From: a virus
DNA: 64,000 bases
IMG/VR virus record: IMGVR_UViG_3300038560_000007
Coordinates: 1-64,000 of that record
Reading direction: 5' to 3' (one strand)
The notes under the pieces were generated by a model. The model saw only the letters and a list, made by a program, of their open reading frames with translations. It had not been told where the DNA came from and did not search any database. Every line of letters begins with the position of its first letter. The stretch's first letter is position 1. Position numbers and translations under genes: made by a program. Shown here in pieces: positions 1-8,181 of this stretch.

Positions 1-84
1 CCCTATGCAGCCCTATGCAGAGGCAAGGAGGGCTTGATCTGACTATGCAGTCAGAGGCAAGGAGGGCTTGATCTGACTATGCAG
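1..84. repeat. Short direct repeats at window start (possible genome end/packaging region)
   Basis: CAGAGGCAAGGAGGGCTTGATCTGACTATGCAG at 18-50 and 52-84; CTATGCAG occurs 4 times. Confidence 0.8.
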
Positions 85-139
85 GCACACCCTACCCCTG
101 CATTTTAAAAGATCTTGAAGCCACACCCTACTACACCCG

Positions 140-168
140 TTGTGAAATGATGATTCAGCCTATATAAT
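140..168 (+). promoter_or_regulatory. Phage early promoter P1
   Basis: TTGTGA-17 nt-TATAAT; same TATATAAT context as 9 other copies. Confidence 0.75.
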
Positions 169-237
169 AAAGATATAGGAAAACAGCAGAACAAGATCCG
201 GAGCAAGATCCGGATCAAGAACCGAAAGGATCATGCT

Positions 238-495
238 ATGTCCAACACGGAACTCGCAGTCATCGAGCGGACCGAAGAGTCCGTCACGATCTCCCCATAC
301 CGCGCGGCCCAGCTAGTCAACGAGATGTTCAGGGAGCTCGGACTCACGAAGCAGATCCCTCCGCAGATGATCTACACTTACGTCCGCAAGGGGTACATCA
401 CCGCAACGGACCGCCGGATCGACCGCCAGTCCTTCGAGACTTGGGCCCGCCCGTACATCGAGCGGACCGCCAAGCGGGCCATGAAGACAGCGTAG
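238..495 (+). CDS. Putative HTH DNA-binding protein, paralogue family A
   Basis: ISPYRAAQLVN...IPPQMIYTYVRKG motif shared with 2024-2467, 4907-5353 and more weakly 20690-21175. Confidence 0.6.
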   Translation: MSNTELAVIERTEESVTISPYRAAQLVNEMFRELGLTKQIPPQMIYTYVRKGYITATDRRIDRQSFETWARPYIERTAKRAMKTA

Positions 496-575
496 CCGGA
501 CCAGAGTGGACAGGGGCTAAAGCCCCTAGTCCGCTCCGGACTTACTACGAAGTCCGATTAAGGAGGGAGGGAACG

Positions 576-884
576 ATGTCCGACATCGACTACGATGCCC
601 TAGCGGCAGCGATCCTGAACCGCGAGTTCGGTCCGAGGAACGATCGGATCACGCAACGCGACCTGACCACGTCGTCAGTTCCGCCAAAGCGGGACGGCAA
701 GCGGCACAACGATCGGGTCAAGGAACGCGGGTCCGAACTGCCGAAGGATTTCATCAGAGCGGCCTACACCGACCACCTACAAGCAGAAGCCCAAACCGCT
801 CGGTTGCCGCGAGAAAGCGGCCCGCGATGGAACGGGATCGTCACCCGATCGAACACCAGCTTCGGCCCAGGCCGAGCGCATTAG
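576..884 (+). CDS. Hypothetical protein
   Basis: AAGGAGGGAGG RBS before ATG 576. Confidence 0.65.
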   Translation: MSDIDYDALAAAILNREFGPRNDRITQRDLTTSSVPPKRDGKRHNDRVKERGSELPKDFIRAAYTDHLQAEAQTARLPRESGPRWNGIVTRSNTSFGPGRAH

Positions 885-892
885 GAGGAAAA

Positions 893-1027
893 ATGGCCAG
901 CATCATGACGCCAGAGATTGGTGTCGGAACGACCGGCCCGACCATCACCATTCGCATGAGGCAGGTTGTATTCGGCCAGTCCTTCTGGACTGACTGCATC
1001 ATCCACCCTGTTGTCACCCGCCCCTAG
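893..1027 (+). CDS. Small hypothetical protein
   Basis: AGGAGG RBS before ATG 893. Confidence 0.55.
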   Translation: MASIMTPEIGVGTTGPTITIRMRQVVFGQSFWTDCIIHPVVTRP

Positions 1028-1203
1028 GCAAGCGAACCCACGTAGCAGGCAGCCGTCACGGTGCAACCGATGACCACGTCGATCGGGAACCGGAGTAGCG
1101 GAAGCCAGGACCGAAAGTTAGCGAGCCTACCCACCCTCTAGACGCCGGGACGCAAGCGCCGACCGATTCCACATCGGCAACGAACAAAGCTACGTACGGC
1201 ATC

Positions 1204-1257
1204 AGGACGAAACCTGCGACGGCAGGTCCACGGCTAGAAGCCGTGCCGATGAGTCCT
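1204..1257 (+). ncRNA. Type II hammerhead ribozyme HH1 (U4C core variant); cleavage after C1228
   Basis: AGGAC-GAAA-CCTGC gacg GCAGG-TC^-CACGGC tagaa GCCGTG-CCGATGA-GTCCT; all three stems pair. Confidence 0.88.
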
Positions 1258-1277
1258 AGCAAAGAAGGAGACCAGCC

Positions 1278-1568
1278 ATGAAGAAGTTCGTAGTCCGAGT
1301 ATACGAAGTGACCATCAAGGACACCGATCAGTACAATAACCTGATGGACCAGATGATCTCAGACGACCCGGAGATCGAGACCGGCAACAACGGAGACCCG
1401 TCCAGAGAGTGGCTGGACGAGCAACTGGCGCTCCGGATGACGTACCAGTACGACATGGGCAATTACGTGACCGCGGACGCGGCCGTCAACGGAGTCCTTG
1501 AAGGGGACGCGTACGTGGTCAGCCTGGACCAAGTCAATCGCATCCAGAACATCCTGCTAGAACGGTGA
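1278..1568 (+). CDS. Hypothetical protein
   Basis: GAAGGAG RBS directly downstream of HH1. Confidence 0.75.
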   Translation: MKKFVVRVYEVTIKDTDQYNNLMDQMISDDPEIETGNNGDPSREWLDEQLALRMTYQYDMGNYVTADAAVNGVLEGDAYVVSLDQVNRIQNILLER

Positions 1569-1636
1569 CGTCACCAAGCTAAGTCACACCCGCCTACATC
1601 AGCCCCCTTCAAAATTAAAGATCTTGAAAAAAGTCC

Positions 1637-1666
1637 TTGAAGGGGCCGCGAGGTCCGCGCTATAAT
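1637..1666 (+). promoter_or_regulatory. Promoter P2
   Basis: TTGAAG-18 nt-TATAAT; AAAGATCTTGAA upstream. Confidence 0.7.
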
Positions 1667-1711
1667 AAAAGTAGAAGCAAAAAACCAACACAAATCCGAG
1701 GCAGGATCAAG

Positions 1712-1933
1712 ATGAAGATTTCGTACCTCAAGGATCAGAAGTTCAGGCCAAAGCCGGTTACGACGAACATGAACTACGTCCGTTGTCCGTGCGAGCCTAA
1801 GACCAACGTACCAGGTTGGTTGCTGGACAAGATCGCCGAGGAGCGCCTGACCGGAAGGTTCAACGTACGAAAGTCAAACCTATGCCCCGGGTGCGGAGAG
1901 TACCGCTCCGTGAACGGTACATGTAGCTGCTAG
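1712..1933 (+). CDS. Small Cys-rich (Zn-binding) protein
   Basis: CPC...CPGC...CSC; GGCAGGA before ATG 1712. Confidence 0.6.
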   Translation: MKISYLKDQKFRPKPVTTNMNYVRCPCEPKTNVPGWLLDKIAEERLTGRFNVRKSNLCPGCGEYRSVNGTCSC

Positions 1934-1942
1934 GACCGAACA

Positions 1943-1994
1943 GGACGAAACGTACGAGAGTACGTCCACGACTGAGAGTCGTGCCGATGAGTCC
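1943..1994 (+). ncRNA. Type II hammerhead ribozyme HH2 (U4C variant); cleavage after C1966
   Basis: GGAC-GAAA-CGTAC gaga GTACG-TC^-CACGAC tgaga GTCGTG-CCGATGA-GTCC. Confidence 0.88.
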
Positions 1995-2023
1995 ATCGGA
2001 ACAAACACGGAAGGAATCCCGTC

Positions 2024-2467
2024 ATGAGTGCAAACCGCAATCGCCGGCCCACGCGTCCGCAGGCCCCGAAGGCGCAGGAGCCCAAGACCGGCACCGAGCT
2101 CGTCCTCTACGGGGACGGCAAGGAGGAGTTGATCGAGGGAACCTTCGTCGAGGAGCCCGAGACCAACGAGCCAGAGACCGACGCCGAAGAGGCCGACGTC
2201 ACCGAGACGGCCGAGGACGCTCCCAAGCGGAAGCGCGTGTTCGTCCTCACACCGTACCAGGCGGCCAAGATCGTGAACCGCAAGCTGATCGAGGCAGGCA
2301 TCGAGAAGGTGCTGCCGCCCCAGATGCTGTACACGTACCGCAAGCAGGGCAAGTTCACCTCGCTGAAGGCCGAAGACGGCCGCTACATGGTGGAGCCGAT
2401 GAGCTTCCTGGCCTGGTGCGACAGCTACATCGCCCGAGTCGCCAAGCGCGAGGCCGAGGCAGCCTGA
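2024..2467 (+). CDS. Putative HTH DNA-binding protein, family A, acidic N-terminal linker
   Basis: LTPYQAAKIVN...LPPQMLYTYRKQG. Confidence 0.65.
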   Translation: MSANRNRRPTRPQAPKAQEPKTGTELVLYGDGKEELIEGTFVEEPETNEPETDAEEADVTETAEDAPKRKRVFVLTPYQAAKIVNRKLIEAGIEKVLPPQMLYTYRKQGKFTSLKAEDGRYMVEPMSFLAWCDSYIARVAKREAEAA

Positions 2468-2476
2468 CCGAGAGAA

Positions 2477-2528
2477 AGGACGAAACCGCTTCGGCGGTCC
2501 ACGGATTAGATCCGTGCTGACGAGTCCT
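2477..2528 (+). ncRNA. Type II hammerhead ribozyme HH3; cleavage after C2499
   Basis: AGGAC-GAAA-CCGC ttcg GCGG-TC^-CACGGA ttaga TCCGTG-CTGACGA-GTCCT; canonical CUGANGA/GAAA/GUC core. Confidence 0.95.
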
Positions 2529-2547
2529 AGAAAGGCAGGAATCAGAA

Positions 2548-2781
2548 ATGGCCAGCATCTTTGCCGGGCTCACGCCCGAGCAGATCAAAGCCCTTACCCC
2601 TCAGGAGATCGGCGACCTGGTAGACAAGTCAATGGTGGGGCGTGTCTGGATCTCCAGGAGCAGCATCACCTGGAGCGGTACTCTCCGCAGGGTCGGAGAG
2701 GCACGAGCAGTGCCGGAGGCGGAGGTTGAGCAGTTTCTCGCTGACGGGTGGCACCTAGTCACACCCGAGTCTGGTGACTGA
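2548..2781 (+). CDS. Hypothetical protein
   Basis: ORF downstream of HH3 with GGCAGGA RBS. Confidence 0.65.
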   Translation: MASIFAGLTPEQIKALTPQEIGDLVDKSMVGRVWISRSSITWSGTLRRVGEARAVPEAEVEQFLADGWHLVTPESGD

Positions 2782-2926
2782 CGTGAACATGGAGACGCTG
2801 TGGCCGTGCCTCATGCACATCGCCACGTGTGGACACCATCTCGCGTACACGCTTCACGTGTTCCACGAGGGTGGACGAACGTTCGGAGCGTACTACTTCA
2901 AGCTAGTACGCAACTAAGGAGGGAAC

Positions 2927-3214
2927 ATGGAACACAAGAGCTCCGACGGCCACGCGATCGAGGTCGGCAAGAAGTTCTGGAACAACGACCTTCGCGTGTG
3001 CGAGATCACCGAGGTTGCTTCCTGGAGCAACGAGTACGCCGACACCGGGTGCACGCAGACGTGGCACGACACCAACAAGGGCCACTTCGACACGCTGGAC
3101 GGATCGATGAAGCCGTACGGCAGGCTAGCCCGCTACTACGGCGGCAAGGATGCTGAGCGGTACGAAGCAGGTACGTACTACGGAGACATCAGCGGTCTTC
3201 CCAATCCGCTGTAA
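2927..3214 (+). CDS. Hypothetical protein
   Basis: AAGGAGGG RBS. Confidence 0.75.
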   Translation: MEHKSSDGHAIEVGKKFWNNDLRVCEITEVASWSNEYADTGCTQTWHDTNKGHFDTLDGSMKPYGRLARYYGGKDAERYEAGTYYGDISGLPNPL

Positions 3215-3217
3215 CCA

Positions 3218-3270
3218 AGGACGAAACGGCGAGAGCCGTCCACGGCTAGAGAGCCGTGCTGAAGAGTCCT
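3218..3270 (+). ncRNA. Type II hammerhead ribozyme HH4; cleavage after C3240
   Basis: AGGAC-GAAA-CGGC gaga GCCG-TC^-CACGGC tagaga GCCGTG-CTGAAGA-GTCCT. Confidence 0.95.
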
Positions 3271-3311
3271 GTAGGAGGACGACCATAGAGCAGTTCAAGG
3301 GAGAGTAGAAG

Positions 3312-3644
3312 ATGAAAGTCAAAGTATGCAAGTGTGGCCACGGTGACTATGAGCATATCGGGTCCGAGAAGAACGGCCCGTGTTCTCATTTGCTGCTAGT
3401 CTCAGAGCGCCATAGGTTCTGCGACTGCATGAAGTTCGAAGAGGAGGTGACAAAACTGGATATGGACGAGGCACACCTGAAGGCCGTCAAGGTCTTCCGC
3501 GAGGCCATGCAGGCCCGCATCGAAGAGTACATCAGCGAGTTCGAGCGCGAGGACGTCGACATCGATGGAGACTACGACCAGCCGATCCTAATGTACGACT
3601 TCGGCCTGTACCTACAGGTCGCCAGCGGGCACCACCCCGAGTAG
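3312..3644 (+). CDS. Hypothetical protein with N-terminal CxCGH...C motif
   Basis: CKCGH..H...C...CDC; RBS AAGGGAG. Confidence 0.65.
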   Translation: MKVKVCKCGHGDYEHIGSEKNGPCSHLLLVSERHRFCDCMKFEEEVTKLDMDEAHLKAVKVFREAMQARIEEYISEFEREDVDIDGDYDQPILMYDFGLYLQVASGHHPE

Positions 3645-3653
3645 CAAGGGACA

Positions 3654-3706
3654 GGGCGAAACGCGCTTCGGCGCGTCCACAGGTAAGTGCCTGTGCTGAT
3701 GAGCCC
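3654..3706 (+). ncRNA. Type II hammerhead ribozyme HH5; cleavage after C3677
   Basis: GGGC-GAAA-CGCGC ttcg GCGCG-TC^-CACAGG taagtg CCTGTG-CTGATGA-GCCC; stem II covaries (GGGC/GCCC). Confidence 0.95.
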
Positions 3707-3717
3707 AAGGAGGGCAC

Positions 3718-3990
3718 ATGTCAAAGATCCAGATCGAGCTGGACCTGACGACGATGCAATATCGTCGCCTGGTCGAGGACGCCGAAGAGGCGATGGACGC
3801 TGCGAGTAACCCGAACTCGTATGAGGCGTTCTACCAGCTTGCCAAGGCCATTTCCGACGCCAAGGGCTGGGAGCTCACCGCTCGCGACCCGGCTACGTGG
3901 AAAGAGGACCAGAGCGCCGAGTGGCGTGAGGAGCAGCAGGCGCAGTACGACGAGCAGTATCCGACACTCCCAGACATGCCGGCTCCATGA
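3718..3990 (+). CDS. Hypothetical protein
   Basis: AAGGAGGGCAC RBS adjoining HH5. Confidence 0.75.
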   Translation: MSKIQIELDLTTMQYRRLVEDAEEAMDAASNPNSYEAFYQLAKAISDAKGWELTARDPATWKEDQSAEWREEQQAQYDEQYPTLPDMPAP

Positions 3991-4086
3991 GAGAGCGGTT
4001 CCACGACTTCGTCTCCGAGATGCTGGTCGCCTTCTTCGAGGCGTACCAGCTCGCGAAGGCACAGAAAAGTTCCCATCGTTAGGGCC

Positions 4087-4116
4087 TTGCTTTTTGCTCG
4101 AGAGCCCCTATATAAT
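4087..4116 (+). promoter_or_regulatory. Promoter P3
   Basis: GGGCC-TTGCTT-18 nt-TATAAT-AGAAGTAG. Confidence 0.75.
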
Positions 4117-4146
4117 AGAAGTAGAGCCAAACTCCAAGGAGATACC

Positions 4147-4305
4147 GTGACCACACACAGGCGGCTACAGAAGACCATGCGCAGCCCGGCACGCGCGAAG
4201 CGCCGGGCCAAGAAGACGCCTTCGGCCATGCGCGAGCGCATGTACATGGCGTTCAGGGCACCACGTGAGGAGCTGGACAGTCTGTTCCTGCACCTCAAGG
4301 GCTAA
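4147..4305 (+). CDS. Small basic protein
   Basis: AAGGAG RBS, GTG start, Arg/Lys-rich. Confidence 0.55.
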   Translation: MTTHRRLQKTMRSPARAKRRAKKTPSAMRERMYMAFRAPREELDSLFLHLKG

Positions 4306-4307
4306 CA

Positions 4308-4360
4308 GGACGAAACGCGGAGTGTCCGCGTCCTAGCGTAAGGCGCTAGCTGACGAGTCC
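4308..4360 (+). ncRNA. Type II hammerhead ribozyme HH6; cleavage after C4332
   Basis: GGAC-GAAA-CGCGGA gtg TCCGCG-TC^-CTAGCG taagg CGCTAG-CTGACGA-GTCC. Confidence 0.95.
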
Positions 4361-4382
4361 GTCAGTACAACAAGGAGGGCAC

Positions 4383-4685
4383 ATGCCAGGAGACCCTAAG
4401 CCATCGCTGAATGCAGTCGAATTCGCTGCCGCGTTCGCGAAGGTATTCGCCCACGCGATCAGCCGAATAGGGCTAGAATGCCCCATTTTCGTCGACGACT
4501 CTGTGGGCACCACGTACGTAGTCGACAGCGTTACGTACGAGGAAGACATGGCGGGAGCCGTCGTAGTTCGTATCCACGAGCTGCCCAAGAGTCGGCATGA
4601 GCTACCTCGAGATGCGCAGGTCATCAGCGAGACGTGGGCCGAGTTCATCGAAGACACCGGTTCCTGTCTACGTACCGGAGCATGA
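4383..4685 (+). CDS. Hypothetical protein
   Basis: CAAGGAGGGCAC RBS. Confidence 0.7.
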   Translation: MPGDPKPSLNAVEFAAAFAKVFAHAISRIGLECPIFVDDSVGTTYVVDSVTYEEDMAGAVVVRIHELPKSRHELPRDAQVISETWAEFIEDTGSCLRTGA

Positions 4686-4781
4686 AGAGCCGGTCATGGC
4701 AATCCGCTTGGATGACCCCTACTCGAGATAGGTCATCAATTGATTTGCCCAAAAACAATTCAAAGATCTTGAATTGGAGCC

Positions 4782-4811
4782 TTGCTAAGTCCGCTAGGTC
4801 TCCTATATAAT
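4782..4811 (+). promoter_or_regulatory. Promoter P4
   Basis: TTGCTA-18 nt-TATAAT; AAAGATCTTGAA upstream. Confidence 0.75.
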
Positions 4812-4906
4812 TGAAGTATAAGCAAGAACGATCTGCGAGAGGTAGGCGAGAGCCGTCCACGGACGGTTGTCGGGTGCAACTCGCATCGGGAAGAGAGGTG
4901 ATACAC

Positions 4907-5353
4907 ATGACTGACACCGACACCAAGGCTCCGGAGACCGAGGCCAAGGTCGAGAAGAAGGCCAAGCGCGCCTACGTCTTCACGCCGTTCCAGGCGATGA
5001 AGAAGGTGAACGCGATGCTGGCAGAGGCGGGTGTTGAGCGGACCCTTCAGGGCCCCATGCTCTACTCCTACGCCAACTCCGGCAAGTTCAAGGTCGCTCC
5101 GGCGCAGGTCGACATCGATGCCAAGGCTGAGAAGCCGAGGCAGGAGGTCGACGAGGAGTCCTTCACCGAGTGGGCAAAGGCGTTCGTTGAGAGTGCCAAG
5201 AACGGTACCCGCAACACCTCCAAGAAGGCGGACAAGGCCGATGAGGCCGAGGACGCTGACGACAACGAGGTCGACGACGAAGACGAGTCCGATGAGGACG
5301 AGGACGCCGACGAGCTCGAGGACGACGACGAGGAGCTCGACGAGGCCGAGTAG
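4907..5353 (+). CDS. Putative HTH DNA-binding protein, family A, long Asp/Glu tail
   Basis: FTPFQAMKKVN...LQGPMLYSY; GAGGTG RBS; acidic C-terminus ending EAE. Confidence 0.7.
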   Translation: MTDTDTKAPETEAKVEKKAKRAYVFTPFQAMKKVNAMLAEAGVERTLQGPMLYSYANSGKFKVAPAQVDIDAKAEKPRQEVDEESFTEWAKAFVESAKNGTRNTSKKADKADEAEDADDNEVDDEDESDEDEDADELEDDDEELDEAE

Positions 5354-5372
5354 GTCAGGAGCTCCTCCGGTA

Positions 5373-5404
5373 ACTGAGTGGGCCTCTTCGGAGGCCCACT
5401 CGGT
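5373..5404 (+). terminator. Strong UUCG-capped hairpin (terminator-like, no U tract)
   Basis: ACTGAGTGGGCCTC-TTCG-GAGGCCCACTCGGT. Confidence 0.5.
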
Positions 5405-5511
5405 ACAGGACAGTACCAACCACGGCTAGTAAGCCGAGCACAATCCCGGGAACAATCCCGGACAAAAAGGCAGACACAAGAGCCCCAAAGGGGCAGGAAG
5501 CAAGGTCCAAA

Positions 5512-5865
5512 ATGCAGGACACAACCAAAGAGCATGGCACGGACTTCAGGCCGGGTAAGGCCCCCCTGAGGGTCACGCTGACCGGCAACGTCGCCCAGTT
5601 CCTGGCGAACGCTGGGCAGGAGATCGCGGACGCGTACGATGCGGCCGACGACGTCGACGAGCTGATCAAGCTCCTGGAAGGCCATGCCGACTGGACGTCG
5701 TACGACATGGACTGGACGCCTCCGCGTGGCGGCGCGAAGCAGACGTTCCACAACGTCTACCGGTCCACCCAGACCTCCGCTACGGAGGAGCTCCGCGTCA
5801 TCGTGACCAAGAGCAGCCGCGGCGACCTCAGCGTCACCTTCCACACCTGGTGGAAGCCGGCGTAA
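5512..5865 (+). CDS. Hypothetical protein
   Basis: ORF with phage-like codon usage. Confidence 0.7.
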   Translation: MQDTTKEHGTDFRPGKAPLRVTLTGNVAQFLANAGQEIADAYDAADDVDELIKLLEGHADWTSYDMDWTPPRGGAKQTFHNVYRSTQTSATEELRVIVTKSSRGDLSVTFHTWWKPA

Positions 5866-6009
5866 CAAGCCCCCGGTCCGGGGTGAAAGTGCACTGCAAG
5901 AGAGCCACACGTGCGGGACGACAGCCTGGTGCGGTTGCGCGCCCAGGCAAGAGAACCTGCGGGTGAGGACGACGGCAGGGCCAAGTACCCTCGGATCGGG
6001 TCCAACCAA

Positions 6010-6062
6010 GGTCGAAACGCCCTGTGAGGGCGTCGGCGGATTATGTCCGTCCTGATGAGACC
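6010..6062 (+). ncRNA. Type II hammerhead ribozyme HH7; cleavage after C6034
   Basis: GGTC-GAAA-CGCCCT gtg AGGGCG-TC^-GGCGGA ttatg TCCGTC-CTGATGA-GACC; stem II covaries (GGTC/GACC). Confidence 0.95.
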
Positions 6063-6073
6063 AAGGAGGCACA

Positions 6074-6322
6074 ATGGCTAGGCACGCTCGCGAAGAGGTC
6101 CTCGCAGAAATCGTCGAGGCCGACAAGCACGAGGCCCTGCTTATCGACACGATGTCCGCTCAGGATGTCGCCGAGGTTCTATTCGGCCTCTTCGGCGAAG
6201 CGACACTCGACGACGTCGGCGTGTTTCTCCGAACACGAAACGATGCCGAGTTCGCGATCCGATCAATCCGGCCGATTCTTCCCAACGAGGACATCATGGA
6301 CGGGAACACCGGAGCCGAGTAG
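6074..6322 (+). CDS. Hypothetical protein
   Basis: AAGGAGG RBS adjoining HH7; flanked by HH7 and HH8. Confidence 0.75.
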   Translation: MARHAREEVLAEIVEADKHEALLIDTMSAQDVAEVLFGLFGEATLDDVGVFLRTRNDAEFAIRSIRPILPNEDIMDGNTGAE

Positions 6323-6323
6323 A

Positions 6324-6376
6324 GGACGAAACGCCCGCCGAGGGCGTCCACGGGTAAGGCCCGTGCTGACGAGTCC
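6324..6376 (+). ncRNA. Type II hammerhead ribozyme HH8; cleavage after C6348
   Basis: GGAC-GAAA-CGCCC gccga GGGCG-TC^-CACGGG taagg CCCGTG-CTGACGA-GTCC. Confidence 0.95.
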
Positions 6377-6399
6377 GTCAGAGGCAAGGAGGGCACAGC

Positions 6400-7572
6400 A
6401 TGGAAGACACCACCCGAGAGGGGGTGAATCCCACGACTGAACGTACTGGCCTGGACAAGGCTATGTGCGAGGCTGAAACAGTCTATGAAGACTTCAGCCC
6501 GAACATGAGGAAGGCTTACAGGACGGTATTGGTTACCTTCGCGACGCATACACACTGTGTCGACATGGAAGGCAAGCTAGTATCCGACGCGACGCCGATA
6601 CCGGCGATCTTGAGCGACAAGCCGAACAGCGGTAAGACGACAGTCCTAGAACTAACGCGGCTGATGTCTCGCCGGGGCTACAAGGTCAGCGCGCGGAACA
6701 CGACCGCGCCCGGCATGCTCAGGGCCATCCAGGAGGAAAAGGCATCATTGTTCCTCGATCAGTTCGAAAGAATGATCAGTCATACTGGTCAGGGATTCGC
6801 CAACCGCCTAGACATCATCGAGACGGGGTATGAGAGGACAGGACAAAGCCTGGACGCGAATGGATTCCACTCGACGTTCTGCGCAAAGGCTCTAACGAGT
6901 CTACAGTCAATGTTCCTTGGCAATCCGAACCTCGAGGCAGTACGATCAAGATCGATTCCGATCTTCGTCGAGCCCATGCCCAGCGGCATGATGAATGACG
7001 ACGATTGGTACGATCCGGCGTTCCACGCCGCGATGGTCAAGAGCATAGGTGAACGCCTCGACAACGAGGTGCGAGTCGCGCTCGAGGACATCATGGTGGC
7101 ACGACCCTCAATGGAAGGCATCTCATCTAGGATGCGCCAGATCTGGAGGCCGCTTTTCCGTATCGCCCACGTGGCGGGTGGAGAATGGCCAGAGAGAGTC
7201 AAGGCCGCGTGCCGAGAGATCGCCCTAGGGCTGGAGACGAGCAAGAAGGTCCTCAGTCCACAGGAGCAGTTGATCGAGGACATCGGAATGGTCGTTGGCC
7301 TGACAGAAGGCGACCTCACGATCGGACAGATTGTTGATCGAGTCTTCGAAGAGGGTCTGCTCAGTGGGAAGTACTGGTCCAGTGAAGGGCAGGGATCCAG
7401 GGCCGTTGGTCGAGCGATGCGAGAGCTCGATGTTGACCAGTGGCGAATCTGGAAGGATGGAACTAACCGGCCAGGCTTCAAGAGGGCGGACCTAGAAAAG
7501 TCACCCTCGCTCGCTCGCTTCATCGCTTCACCAGATCTTGCAGAGCAAGATGAAGCTGCAGATGTAGCCTGA
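6400..7572 (+). CDS. P-loop ATPase, DUF3631-like (replication/primase-associated helicase type)
   Basis: Walker A-like KPNSGKTT, Walker B LFLDQ, SRSIPI, RxxQIWRPLFRIAHVAGGEWPER. Confidence 0.7.
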   Translation: MEDTTREGVNPTTERTGLDKAMCEAETVYEDFSPNMRKAYRTVLVTFATHTHCVDMEGKLVSDATPIPAILSDKPNSGKTTVLELTRLMSRRGYKVSARNTTAPGMLRAIQEEKASLFLDQFERMISHTGQGFANRLDIIETGYERTGQSLDANGFHSTFCAKALTSLQSMFLGNPNLEAVRSRSIPIFVEPMPSGMMNDDDWYDPAFHAAMVKSIGERLDNEVRVALEDIMVARPSMEGISSRMRQIWRPLFRIAHVAGGEWPERVKAACREIALGLETSKKVLSPQEQLIEDIGMVVGLTEGDLTIGQIVDRVFEEGLLSGKYWSSEGQGSRAVGRAMRELDVDQWRIWKDGTNRPGFKRADLEKSPSLARFIASPDLAEQDEAADVA

Positions 7573-7581
7573 GGAGACGAA

Positions 7582-7635
7582 AGGTCGAAACGCCCTTCGG
7601 GGCGTCCACGTCTGAGAGACGTGCTGAAGAGACCT
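7582..7635 (+). ncRNA. Type II hammerhead ribozyme HH9; cleavage after C7606
   Basis: AGGTC-GAAA-CGCCC ttcg GGGCG-TC^-CACGTC tgaga GACGTG-CTGAAGA-GACCT. Confidence 0.95.
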
Positions 7636-7657
7636 GACAAAGGGAGGTGAACAGGAA

Positions 7658-7990
7658 ATGGGAATGATGGGATTTATGGCGCGGACTTACATTCGCCAGT
7701 CCATCAACGACGGTAGGCGCATACCTACCACACTGAACCAGCGGGAGCGGAACATCCTGAACAGGGAGATCCGCAAGGCTGGGATCATGCACGACCACTC
7801 GAAGGGCCGTAATCGGTGCAGGGCTTGTGCTGAGTACAACTCCGCAGCACGACGCATTCTGAAGGGAGAGAATCTCCTGGCCACCTCCACGAAGCAAGGT
7901 AACCGAGTGGTCATCAATGGTCACAGGCCAGGAACCAAGGTCACTGGCAGTGGCATGGGGACAGGGACTCCTCTGGACCTATTCATTTAG
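7658..7990 (+). CDS. Hypothetical protein
   Basis: GGAGGTG RBS after HH9; H...CRAC motif. Confidence 0.65.
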   Translation: MGMMGFMARTYIRQSINDGRRIPTTLNQRERNILNREIRKAGIMHDHSKGRNRCRACAEYNSAARRILKGENLLATSTKQGNRVVINGHRPGTKVTGSGMGTGTPLDLFI

Positions 7991-8181
7991 GGAGGAACTA
8001 TGCCGGTTGAGCCGGTAGATGTATGGGACGACCGAGGCTGTCCCATGCCCAAGGTCAGCCTCGTGGAGGCGAAGGCCTACATCGAAGCTGCGGCGCCTGC
8101 CGTCGCGGTCCAGCTCTACATTACGGACCAGGAGCAGAACGATTTCGTTCTTCTCGAGTCCGGCGAGTGGGAGGCAGCCTG

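Follow-up and report, generated by a model that had tools for sequence, protein, structure and literature searches.

What would nine ribozyme motifs, all on one strand, do in the early region of a single phage? The question is raised by the left end of the IMG/VR virus record IMGVR_UViG_3300038560_000007, an uncultured phage recovered from a peat metagenome. The window analysed here corresponds to bases 1-64,000 of this 79,614-bp record. In it, nine type II hammerhead motifs are found on the + strand between small early genes, over a span of 6.4 kb. By every sequence and structure criterion tested, these elements are genuine type II hammerheads, and the ribozymes are real and very probably active. 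We consider it likely that they cleave themselves in the sense strand of four promoter-driven early units, and that they process the transcripts of these units into short, hairpin-capped messages.

Nine type II hammerheads between small genes

The order of the parts is the same in all nine elements: 3' strand of stem II, GAAA, stem III hairpin, GUC, stem I hairpin, C(U/C)GANGA and 5' strand of stem II. The elements are numbered here HH1 to HH9, and the scores given below are those obtained with a covariance model made from the nine copies (64.5-75.2 bits). HH1 (1204-1257; 71.9 bits) has stems II, III and I of 5 bp, 6 bp and 6-7 bp, respectively. Its core is CCGAUGA, with a C at position 4 (U4C), its predicted cut lies after 1228 and the next gene is at 1278. 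HH2 (1943-1994; 69.2 bits), the other U4C copy, is located 9 nt after the stop at 1933; the cut is predicted after 1966, ahead of the gene at 2024. The remaining copies have the canonical core. HH3 (2477-2528; 67.7 bits) follows the stop at 2467 by 9 nt, with a predicted cut after 2499 and the next gene at 2548. HH4 (3218-3270; 64.5 bits), 3 nt after the stop at 3214, would be cut after 3240 and precedes the gene at 3312. In HH5 (3654-3706; 72.3 bits; predicted cut after 3677; next gene at 3718), the ribosome-binding site starts immediately 3' of stem II. HH6 (4308-4360; 67.9 bits) begins 2 nt after the stop at 4305, and its predicted cut after 4332 comes before the gene at 4383. For HH7 (6010-6062; 68.2 bits) the predicted cut is after 6034 and the next gene at 6074. 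HH8 (6324-6376; 75.2 bits), only 1 nt downstream of the stop at 6322, has its predicted cut after 6348 and lies upstream of the gene for a DUF3631 protein at 6400. Finally, HH9 (7582-7635; 75.1 bits) is found 9 nt after the stop at 7572, with a predicted cut after 7606 and the next gene at 7658. An earlier note on this DNA had placed nine sense-strand, intergenic hammerheads at these same starts. All of them were recovered by reading and by pattern search, and the nine predicted cuts that it listed agree with those derived here.

How specific are these motifs? A loose pattern (GAAA, a downstream C[TC]GA.GA and a closing helix of at least 3 bp) found exactly the nine copies on the + strand and one junk match on the - strand. 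A stricter descriptor, which additionally needs hairpins III and I with the U-H junction, gave nine matches on the + strand and none on the - strand of the whole 79,614-bp record, as compared to a mean of 0.01 in shuffled sequences (n = 100). With the filters of the covariance model switched off, a search for further or degenerate copies over 12 kb left a best remaining match of 11.6 bits. With the same model, no tenth copy was detected in the rest of the window, as the earlier note had stated, nor in the rest of the 79.6-kb record.

All nine copies contain GAAA, the A15.1-U16.1 pair, GUC, C-(U/C)-G-A-N-G-A and the G10.1-C11.1 pair, and the residue at H17 is always a C. In the nine-copy alignment, GAAAC, GUC, C-(U/C)-GA-N-GAG and the core-adjacent G-C pair are common to all, and the stems differ. 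The assignment to the type II class made in the earlier note therefore holds, with a canonical core in seven copies (HH3 to HH9) and a known variant, U4C, in HH1 and HH2.

The claim that structure is conserved rather than sequence is borne out by the same alignment. On the hammerhead structure, 96.1% of the paired cells can form a pair, as compared to 24-41% in shifted registers. Both sides have changed in 11 of 17 pairs, including all six pairs of stem I, a result matched by none of 500 shuffles. Among the nine, variation is much lower in stem II, where three of five pairs are invariant, than in stems I and III; the stem II strands are GGAC/GUCC in six copies. In a broader alignment of 123 relatives from 16 sources, 94.2% of cells are paired and the covariation score reaches 0.757 (0.160 after shuffling). 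G-U pairs are frequent in these relatives, which argues for pairing at the RNA level. Moreover, the minimum-free-energy fold of the isolated element is the three-way hammerhead junction in all nine cases.

The U4C variant occurs only in HH1 and HH2 among the 123 aligned relatives. HH1 and HH2 are separated from each other by compensatory stem changes; thus, the variant core has been kept under selection for the fold.

The positions of the elements are as regular as their structures. All nine are strictly intergenic, on the coding strand and confined to the left 7.6 kb. In seven of them the gap from the preceding stop codon is 1-9 nt, in agreement with the earlier note; HH1 and HH7 lie further from it, at 176 nt and 144 nt, respectively. 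Between the hammerhead's 3' end and the start codon there are 11-41 nt in every case, with a GGAG or GGAGG Shine-Dalgarno site ahead of the start, and the distance from predicted cut to start codon is 39-71 nt, again as claimed.

Proposed processing of the early transcripts

Which transcripts would carry these elements? Four sigma-70-like promoters were identified on the + strand. P1 (140-168; TTGTGA, 17 nt, TATAAT) would drive the unit of HH1, P2 (1637-1666) that of HH2 to HH5, P3 (4087-4116; TTGCTT ... TATATAAT) that of HH6 and P4 (4782-4811) that of HH7 to HH9. The common design, CC-TTGCTT..., 17-18 nt, TATA(T)AAT-AGAAGTAGAG, is found at five more + strand sites of the record (11274, 20619, 24602, 70938 and 74339), nine in total. 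The four promoters and the small ORFan genes of the left 7.6 kb make the early-region label of the earlier note plausible. A further motif, AAAGATCTTGAA, is present upstream of three of the four promoters (at 110, 1619 and 4764) and may be an UP element or an operator.

Junctions that lack a ribozyme are of three kinds: overlapping or close genes, promoters, and strongly structured spacers. Thus, no ribozyme separates the gene pairs that overlap or are spaced by 8-9 nt (884/893, 2781/2774, 2917/2927 and 3990/3987). The structured spacers are 496-575 (z = -4.9), 4812-4906 (z = -3.9), 5354-5500 (z = -6.3) and 5866-6009 (z = -3.9). The ribozymes are thus placed between translation units, each made up of one to three genes.

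In the mechanism that we propose, the RNA of each junction would fold during transcription into the three-way junction and cut itself after the C of GUC. In hammerhead chemistry the strand is broken 3' of H17, and the ends produced are a 2',3'-cyclic phosphate and a 5'-OH. In the type II topology the open helix is stem II; cleavage would therefore leave one part of the ribozyme on each of the two messages and, since stem II has only 4-5 bp, the two halves should separate afterwards. In the computed folds, the predicted 5' products end in the stem III hairpin plus one C, and the predicted 3' products all have the stem I hairpin, of 6-7 bp, at their very first nucleotide. The downstream message would therefore consist of the stem I hairpin, a leader of 11-41 nt, the Shine-Dalgarno site and the start codon. 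Long transcripts would in this manner be converted into messages of one to three genes, in which overlapping genes or genes spaced by 8-9 nt would stay joined. The hairpins at both message ends might make stability and translation independent of the neighbouring sequence.

Two well-known systems offer analogies. RiboJ was engineered from a satellite-RNA hammerhead, and the whole ribozyme stays on the downstream RNA. T7 early mRNA is processed by host RNase III, which leaves a 5'-phosphate and a 3'-OH. Both involve cutting between cistrons and yield a defined, structured 5' end; the likeness is one of analogy and not of family membership. The comparison with RiboJ made in the earlier note is a fair one, given the hairpin at the first nucleotide of every predicted 3' product. 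The processing of early transcripts that it proposed is also reasonable; as an idea it is not new, having been put forward by Perreault et al. (2011; PMC3088659).

Several observations weigh against transcript processing by these elements. The Rfam search that the earlier note had suggested reports none of the nine at gathering thresholds. In E-value mode, four copies match RF02276 (Hammerhead_II, clan CL00010) below its gathering cut-off of 37 bits (HH5, 35.9 bits; HH8, 31.8 bits; HH7 and HH9, 26.9 bits each), and the other five are unreported by RF02276 even at E <= 10. Across the whole window, this mode returned two sub-threshold hammerhead matches only, and no other ribozyme class. With RF02276 the nine elements have in common the core, the helix order, cleavage at GUC and a stem II that is open. 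They lack two features of its consensus, a stem II of 2 bp and a tail that forms a pseudoknot. The low scores are thus accounted for by the longer stem II (4-5 bp) and the missing pseudoknot tail, not by defects of the core.

In most type II hammerheads, loop I and the 3' tail form a pseudoknot that serves for fast cutting at low Mg2+; this contact is not obligatory for a hammerhead. Here, no such pseudoknot was found in any of the nine copies: loop I and tail are complementary over 1-4 nt at the longest, a length that shuffled tails also reach; complementarity of loop I to the 5' flank does not exceed that of shuffles either. The nine copies are a pseudoknot-less subtype. Together with the scores below the Rfam threshold, this makes the cleavage rates at physiological Mg2+ uncertain. 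Among the 123 relatives, the first base of loop I is a U in all 100 rows having a base there, and the base just 5' of stem II is an A in 103, paired in only 18. From this conservation we infer that the U and the A may form a tertiary contact that replaces the pseudoknot.

The core variant is a second point. U4C is a natural variant with considerably lower activity in vitro that supports viroid infectivity (PMC3088659). It is expected to slow catalysis in HH1 and HH2, which would probably cut more slowly, and uniform cutting of the array is consequently not assured. Third, when the leader up to the start codon is included, an alternative structure beats the hammerhead fold by 2.2-6.6 kcal/mol in five of the nine copies (6.6 kcal/mol in HH2), according to a nearest-neighbour model that ignores the tertiary stabilisation of the hammerhead. 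In these alternative folds, the base-pairing partner of the leader is the freed core or the freed strand of stem II. Fourth, several junctions have large hairpins instead of a ribozyme, so that ribozymes are not the sole device used in the region. Lastly, PMC3328962, citing Collins et al. (2007), describes the 5'-OH product of the glmS ribozyme as a substrate of the 5'-3' exonuclease activity of RNase J1, so that cutting could destabilise the downstream message. On the strength of that account, the view that a 5'-OH end makes a poor substrate for RNase E/J, held in the earlier note, is only half right: in hosts with RNase J the 5'-OH alone would not protect, and any protection would have to come from the flush 5' hairpin.

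Core-complementary tails and rival explanations

The competing folds raise the question of whether the sequence downstream of stem II is itself designed to pair with the core. In HH2, HH6 and HH8, the five bases directly after stem II are complementary to C3-N7. The tail of HH2 (1995-1999) is AUCGG, the exact complement of the core C3-C4-G5-A6-U7; those of HH6 (4361-4365) and HH8 (6377-6381) are both GUCAG, the exact complement of the core CUGAC. A set of 256 unique type II hammerheads from other phage loci was used for comparison. A core-complementary tail that matches the element's own N7 is present in 51 of these, about a fifth of the phage type II hammerheads sampled, and a tail matching any of the three other N7 bases in only nine. 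The tail begins exactly at the end of stem II in 32 of the 51. Within the whole set, 224 elements have a Shine-Dalgarno site and a start codon no more than 60 nt downstream (median 22 nt). The recurrence of own-N7 tails in other phages indicates that those of HH2, HH6 and HH8 are no local accident. No description of a core-complementary tail was found in PMC3088659, PMC6765202 or PMC8782182.

As modelled, the masking hairpin would exclude the active fold, and it would be either a trap formed after cleavage, which makes the cut irreversible, or an off state formed before it. Within the processing mechanism, the downstream product would probably refold once stem II has opened, through the mask in HH2, HH6 and HH8 and, in some other copies, through pairing of the leader with the stem II strand. 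Such refolding would either lock the cut or compete, before the cut, as an inactive state.

If the second role prevailed, the elements would be conditional switches and not constitutive cutters. The tails of HH2, HH6 and HH8 and the leader pairings of HH4 and HH5 would hold some transcripts inactive, in a way tuned for each gene or coupled to ribosome loading, and U4C would add slow members. The better alternative folds in five copies point in this direction, as do the covariation of the mask with N7 across unrelated phages (51 own against 9 other) and the U4C core, confined to two copies and kept while their stems evolved. However, the exact mask is found in only three of nine copies, a product-trapping fold after cleavage explains the same hairpin equally well, the energies come from a model without hammerhead tertiary contacts, and no signal or ligand is apparent for a switch. 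We regard this explanation as possible but rather unlikely. Equally tentative is its extension to the array as a whole, which might be programmed: canonical copies that cut fast, two U4C copies that cut slowly and three masked copies would together determine, with no protein involved, how much of each early message there is, when it appears or how it depends on translation. Should the masking tail prove to be an off state preceding cleavage, it would add an undescribed layer of control to a classic ribozyme.

Another explanation starts from the fate of the cut RNA. Cleavage might shorten the life of the downstream early messages, as with glmS, through 5'-3' attack of the RNase J type or through the lost link with upstream ribosomes, and in this way limit or shut off early expression. 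The restriction of the elements to the early region, where transient expression is expected, is compatible with this idea, and so is the degradation of the glmS 5'-OH product by RNase J1 in Bacillus subtilis (PMC3328962). Nevertheless, each 3' product keeps a strong, intact ribosome-binding site 11-41 nt downstream. Each product also starts with a flush hairpin of 6-7 bp, and a flush 5' hairpin is a poor entry site for a 5' exonuclease. A role in shortening the messages is, for these reasons, improbable.

Could the halves be joined again? Neighbouring halves might re-pair through stem II and be ligated, by the reverse reaction or by host RtcB, into circular or spliced messages. The near-identity of stem II among the nine copies would allow such pairing, and ends carrying a 2',3'-cyclic phosphate and a 5'-OH suit RtcB. 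The possibility of religation was raised by Perreault et al., who sought religated products and found none (PMC3088659). In the present array, the stem II strands mismatch between HH7 and HH8 and between HH8 and HH9, neither an RtcB nor an RNA ligase gene was found in the phage, and the conservation of stem II is equally expected from constraint near the core. Religation is therefore very unlikely.

Least likely of all is that the elements are inactive relics, selfish repeats or DNA-level palindromes with an incidental match to the hammerhead: pieces that look decayed do exist in the region (4845-4862, which repeats part of HH4, and 5421-5436, a hairpin resembling that of stem I) and all nine copies score below the Rfam gathering threshold, but the core bases are kept in all nine save for U4C while the stems change compensatorily, and all nine are sense-strand and intergenic, with G-U pairs, against a chance expectation of 0.01 motifs.

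Known arrays, other junctions and the source genome

To what extent is this arrangement known from other phages? The first natural type II hammerheads were described by Perreault et al. (2011), who found that multiple hammerheads in prophages often flank single genes or short gene blocks and proposed that they convert long phage transcripts into single-gene mRNAs; three triple arrays cleave in vitro, and one in Escherichia coli (PMC3088659). In Desulfovibrio vulgaris cells, cyPhyRNA-seq showed that three type II hammerheads near phage-like genes are cut (PMC8782182). As in the prophage clusters, the copies of the present array are on one strand and between genes, flanking small, unrelated phage genes singly or in short blocks, and the same role is proposed for them. 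The type II topology is also common in that class. By contrast, the arrays tested by Perreault et al. are triples and there are nine copies here in 6.4 kb, with a 4-5 bp stem II, no loop I/tail pseudoknot and a core-complementary tail in three copies.

Large arrays are found elsewhere too. A narrow pattern scan of IMG/VR gave at least 119 hammerhead-type loci, and at least 245 hammerheads were detected by the covariance model in 100 of the loci listed. Among the IMG/VR matches listed, single-strand arrays of 7-12 copies occur, with a maximum of 12 (loci L077 and L087), followed by 9 and 8. A BLAST search with HH8, followed by covariance-model matching of the genomes, also led to four Streptomyces phages, in which the matches lie on one strand: Yara (MH019215) and Lizz (MZ648036) with eight each, Wentworth (MH019216) and phiRKBJ001 (MT936332) with six each. 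As here, these arrays occupy a single strand over about 7 kb of small hypothetical genes. In Yara, most copies are 4-9 nt after a stop and 10-15 nt before the next start, the same spacing as in the present phage. The Streptomyces arrays differ in the inserts of stem III or stem I, which are longer in several copies. No protein similarity was detected between the four Streptomyces phages and the present phage. The BLAST-matched copy in each of the four records has no annotation beneath it. One of the eight matches in Yara (MH019215.1, locus L127), at 3922-3991, falls within the gene annotated as 88, which spans 3890-4141 in locus coordinates. Either this hammerhead match overlaps coding sequence or the gene has been given a wrong start. 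On hammerheads in Streptomyces phages or on larger arrays, the literature search retrieved nothing beyond PMC3088659 and PMC6765202.

The architecture has thus been known since 2011 and is common, and the suggestion in the earlier note that a multi-ribozyme operon layout might be new does not stand. The present array stands out by its size and by how regular it is, as a large and clean example rather than a system of a new kind. The search for the same architecture that the note advised did succeed in IMG/VR and in Streptomyces phages, but no close relative of this phage was found. In uncultured phages such arrays are common; standard Rfam annotation misses them, and they are also present, without annotation, in Streptomyces phages. 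The latter, unlike the present phage, can be cultivated, and the processing and masking-tail hypotheses can accordingly be tested at the bench. A 2019 review still considered the biology of bacterial self-cleaving ribozymes "largely elusive" (PMC6765202). On the function of bacterial and phage hammerheads the window offers not an answer but a very clean natural case, in which nine ribozymes are combined with four promoters, with defined gene units and with core variants of natural origin.

The record has an estimated completeness of about 90% (CheckV) and a G+C content of 56.5%. Near-identical DNA is present in peat metagenome runs of two studies, and a soil run has a small share. The contig is viral and has capsid, PolA and SNF2 helicase genes. 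On the + strand, the small ORFan genes are followed by the SNF2 helicase gene (22.4 kb) and by a UDG-PolA fusion (36.4 kb); from about 40 kb, capsid-like and large structural genes are on the - strand. Megablast with bases 1-8000 of the window found no close relative among cultured phages, and tblastn with PolA gave at most 29% identity to cultured phages, again with no close relative. With the DUF3631 protein and PolA as queries, no related locus was found in IMG/VR. Twenty early proteins had no tblastn match in any of the hammerhead-bearing loci retrieved and, in Pfam and PHROGs, the early proteins belong to no family except DUF3631 (6400-7572). A search for a T7-type RNA polymerase produced no signal in any control genome.

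Some features of the region deserve mention in their own right. The 144-nt element at 5866-6009, which precedes HH7, is a single long imperfect hairpin. Three of the structured junctions without ribozymes (496-575, 5354-5500 and 5866-6009) may be terminators lacking a U tract, stabiliser hairpins or RNase III sites. In the fourth, the leader (4812-4906) of gene 4907-5353, an exact 18-nt copy of part of HH4 (3228-3245) is found at 4845-4862. In this copy, stem III is represented by its hairpin and stem I by its first five bases, with GUC between them; neither GAAA nor CUGANGA is found around it. The copy is placed at the tip of a long hairpin (z = -3.9), and a hammerhead that decayed or was duplicated in part could have been reused here as a structure of the leader. 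At 5407-5436, AGGAC is followed after 9 nt by CACGGCUAGUAAGCCG. This element resembles the stem II start and the stem I hairpin (5421-5436) of HH1 and HH4, the middle of the ribozyme being missing, and may be a second decayed copy. A perfect 13-bp hairpin (about 5374-5403) lies just before it.

Three of the small early proteins are paralogous (238-495, 2024-2467 and 4907-5353). They share the motif TP(Y/F)(Q/R)A..VN...E.G......M.Y.Y...G, the second and third being 42% identical over 77 residues, and none of the three matches Pfam or PHROGs. The protein encoded by 4907-5353 ends in a very acidic tail of about 40 residues, from which one may guess at a DNA mimic or a host-takeover protein. Further downstream, the open reading frame 9516-10070 matches phrog_3962 (E = 8.5e-26; function not assigned) and has an HxHxH-like motif, HLHVHVV, reminiscent of HIT-family nucleotide hydrolases. 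At the left end of the record (1-90), there are short direct repeats, with CCCTATGCAG present twice, followed by two copies of a unit of about 34 nt. These repeats contain GAGGCAAGGAGGGC, 14 bases that recur in the leader and ribosome-binding site downstream of HH8 (6381-6394), and may represent a terminal repeat, a contig-end assembly artefact or a binding-site module shared by the two places.

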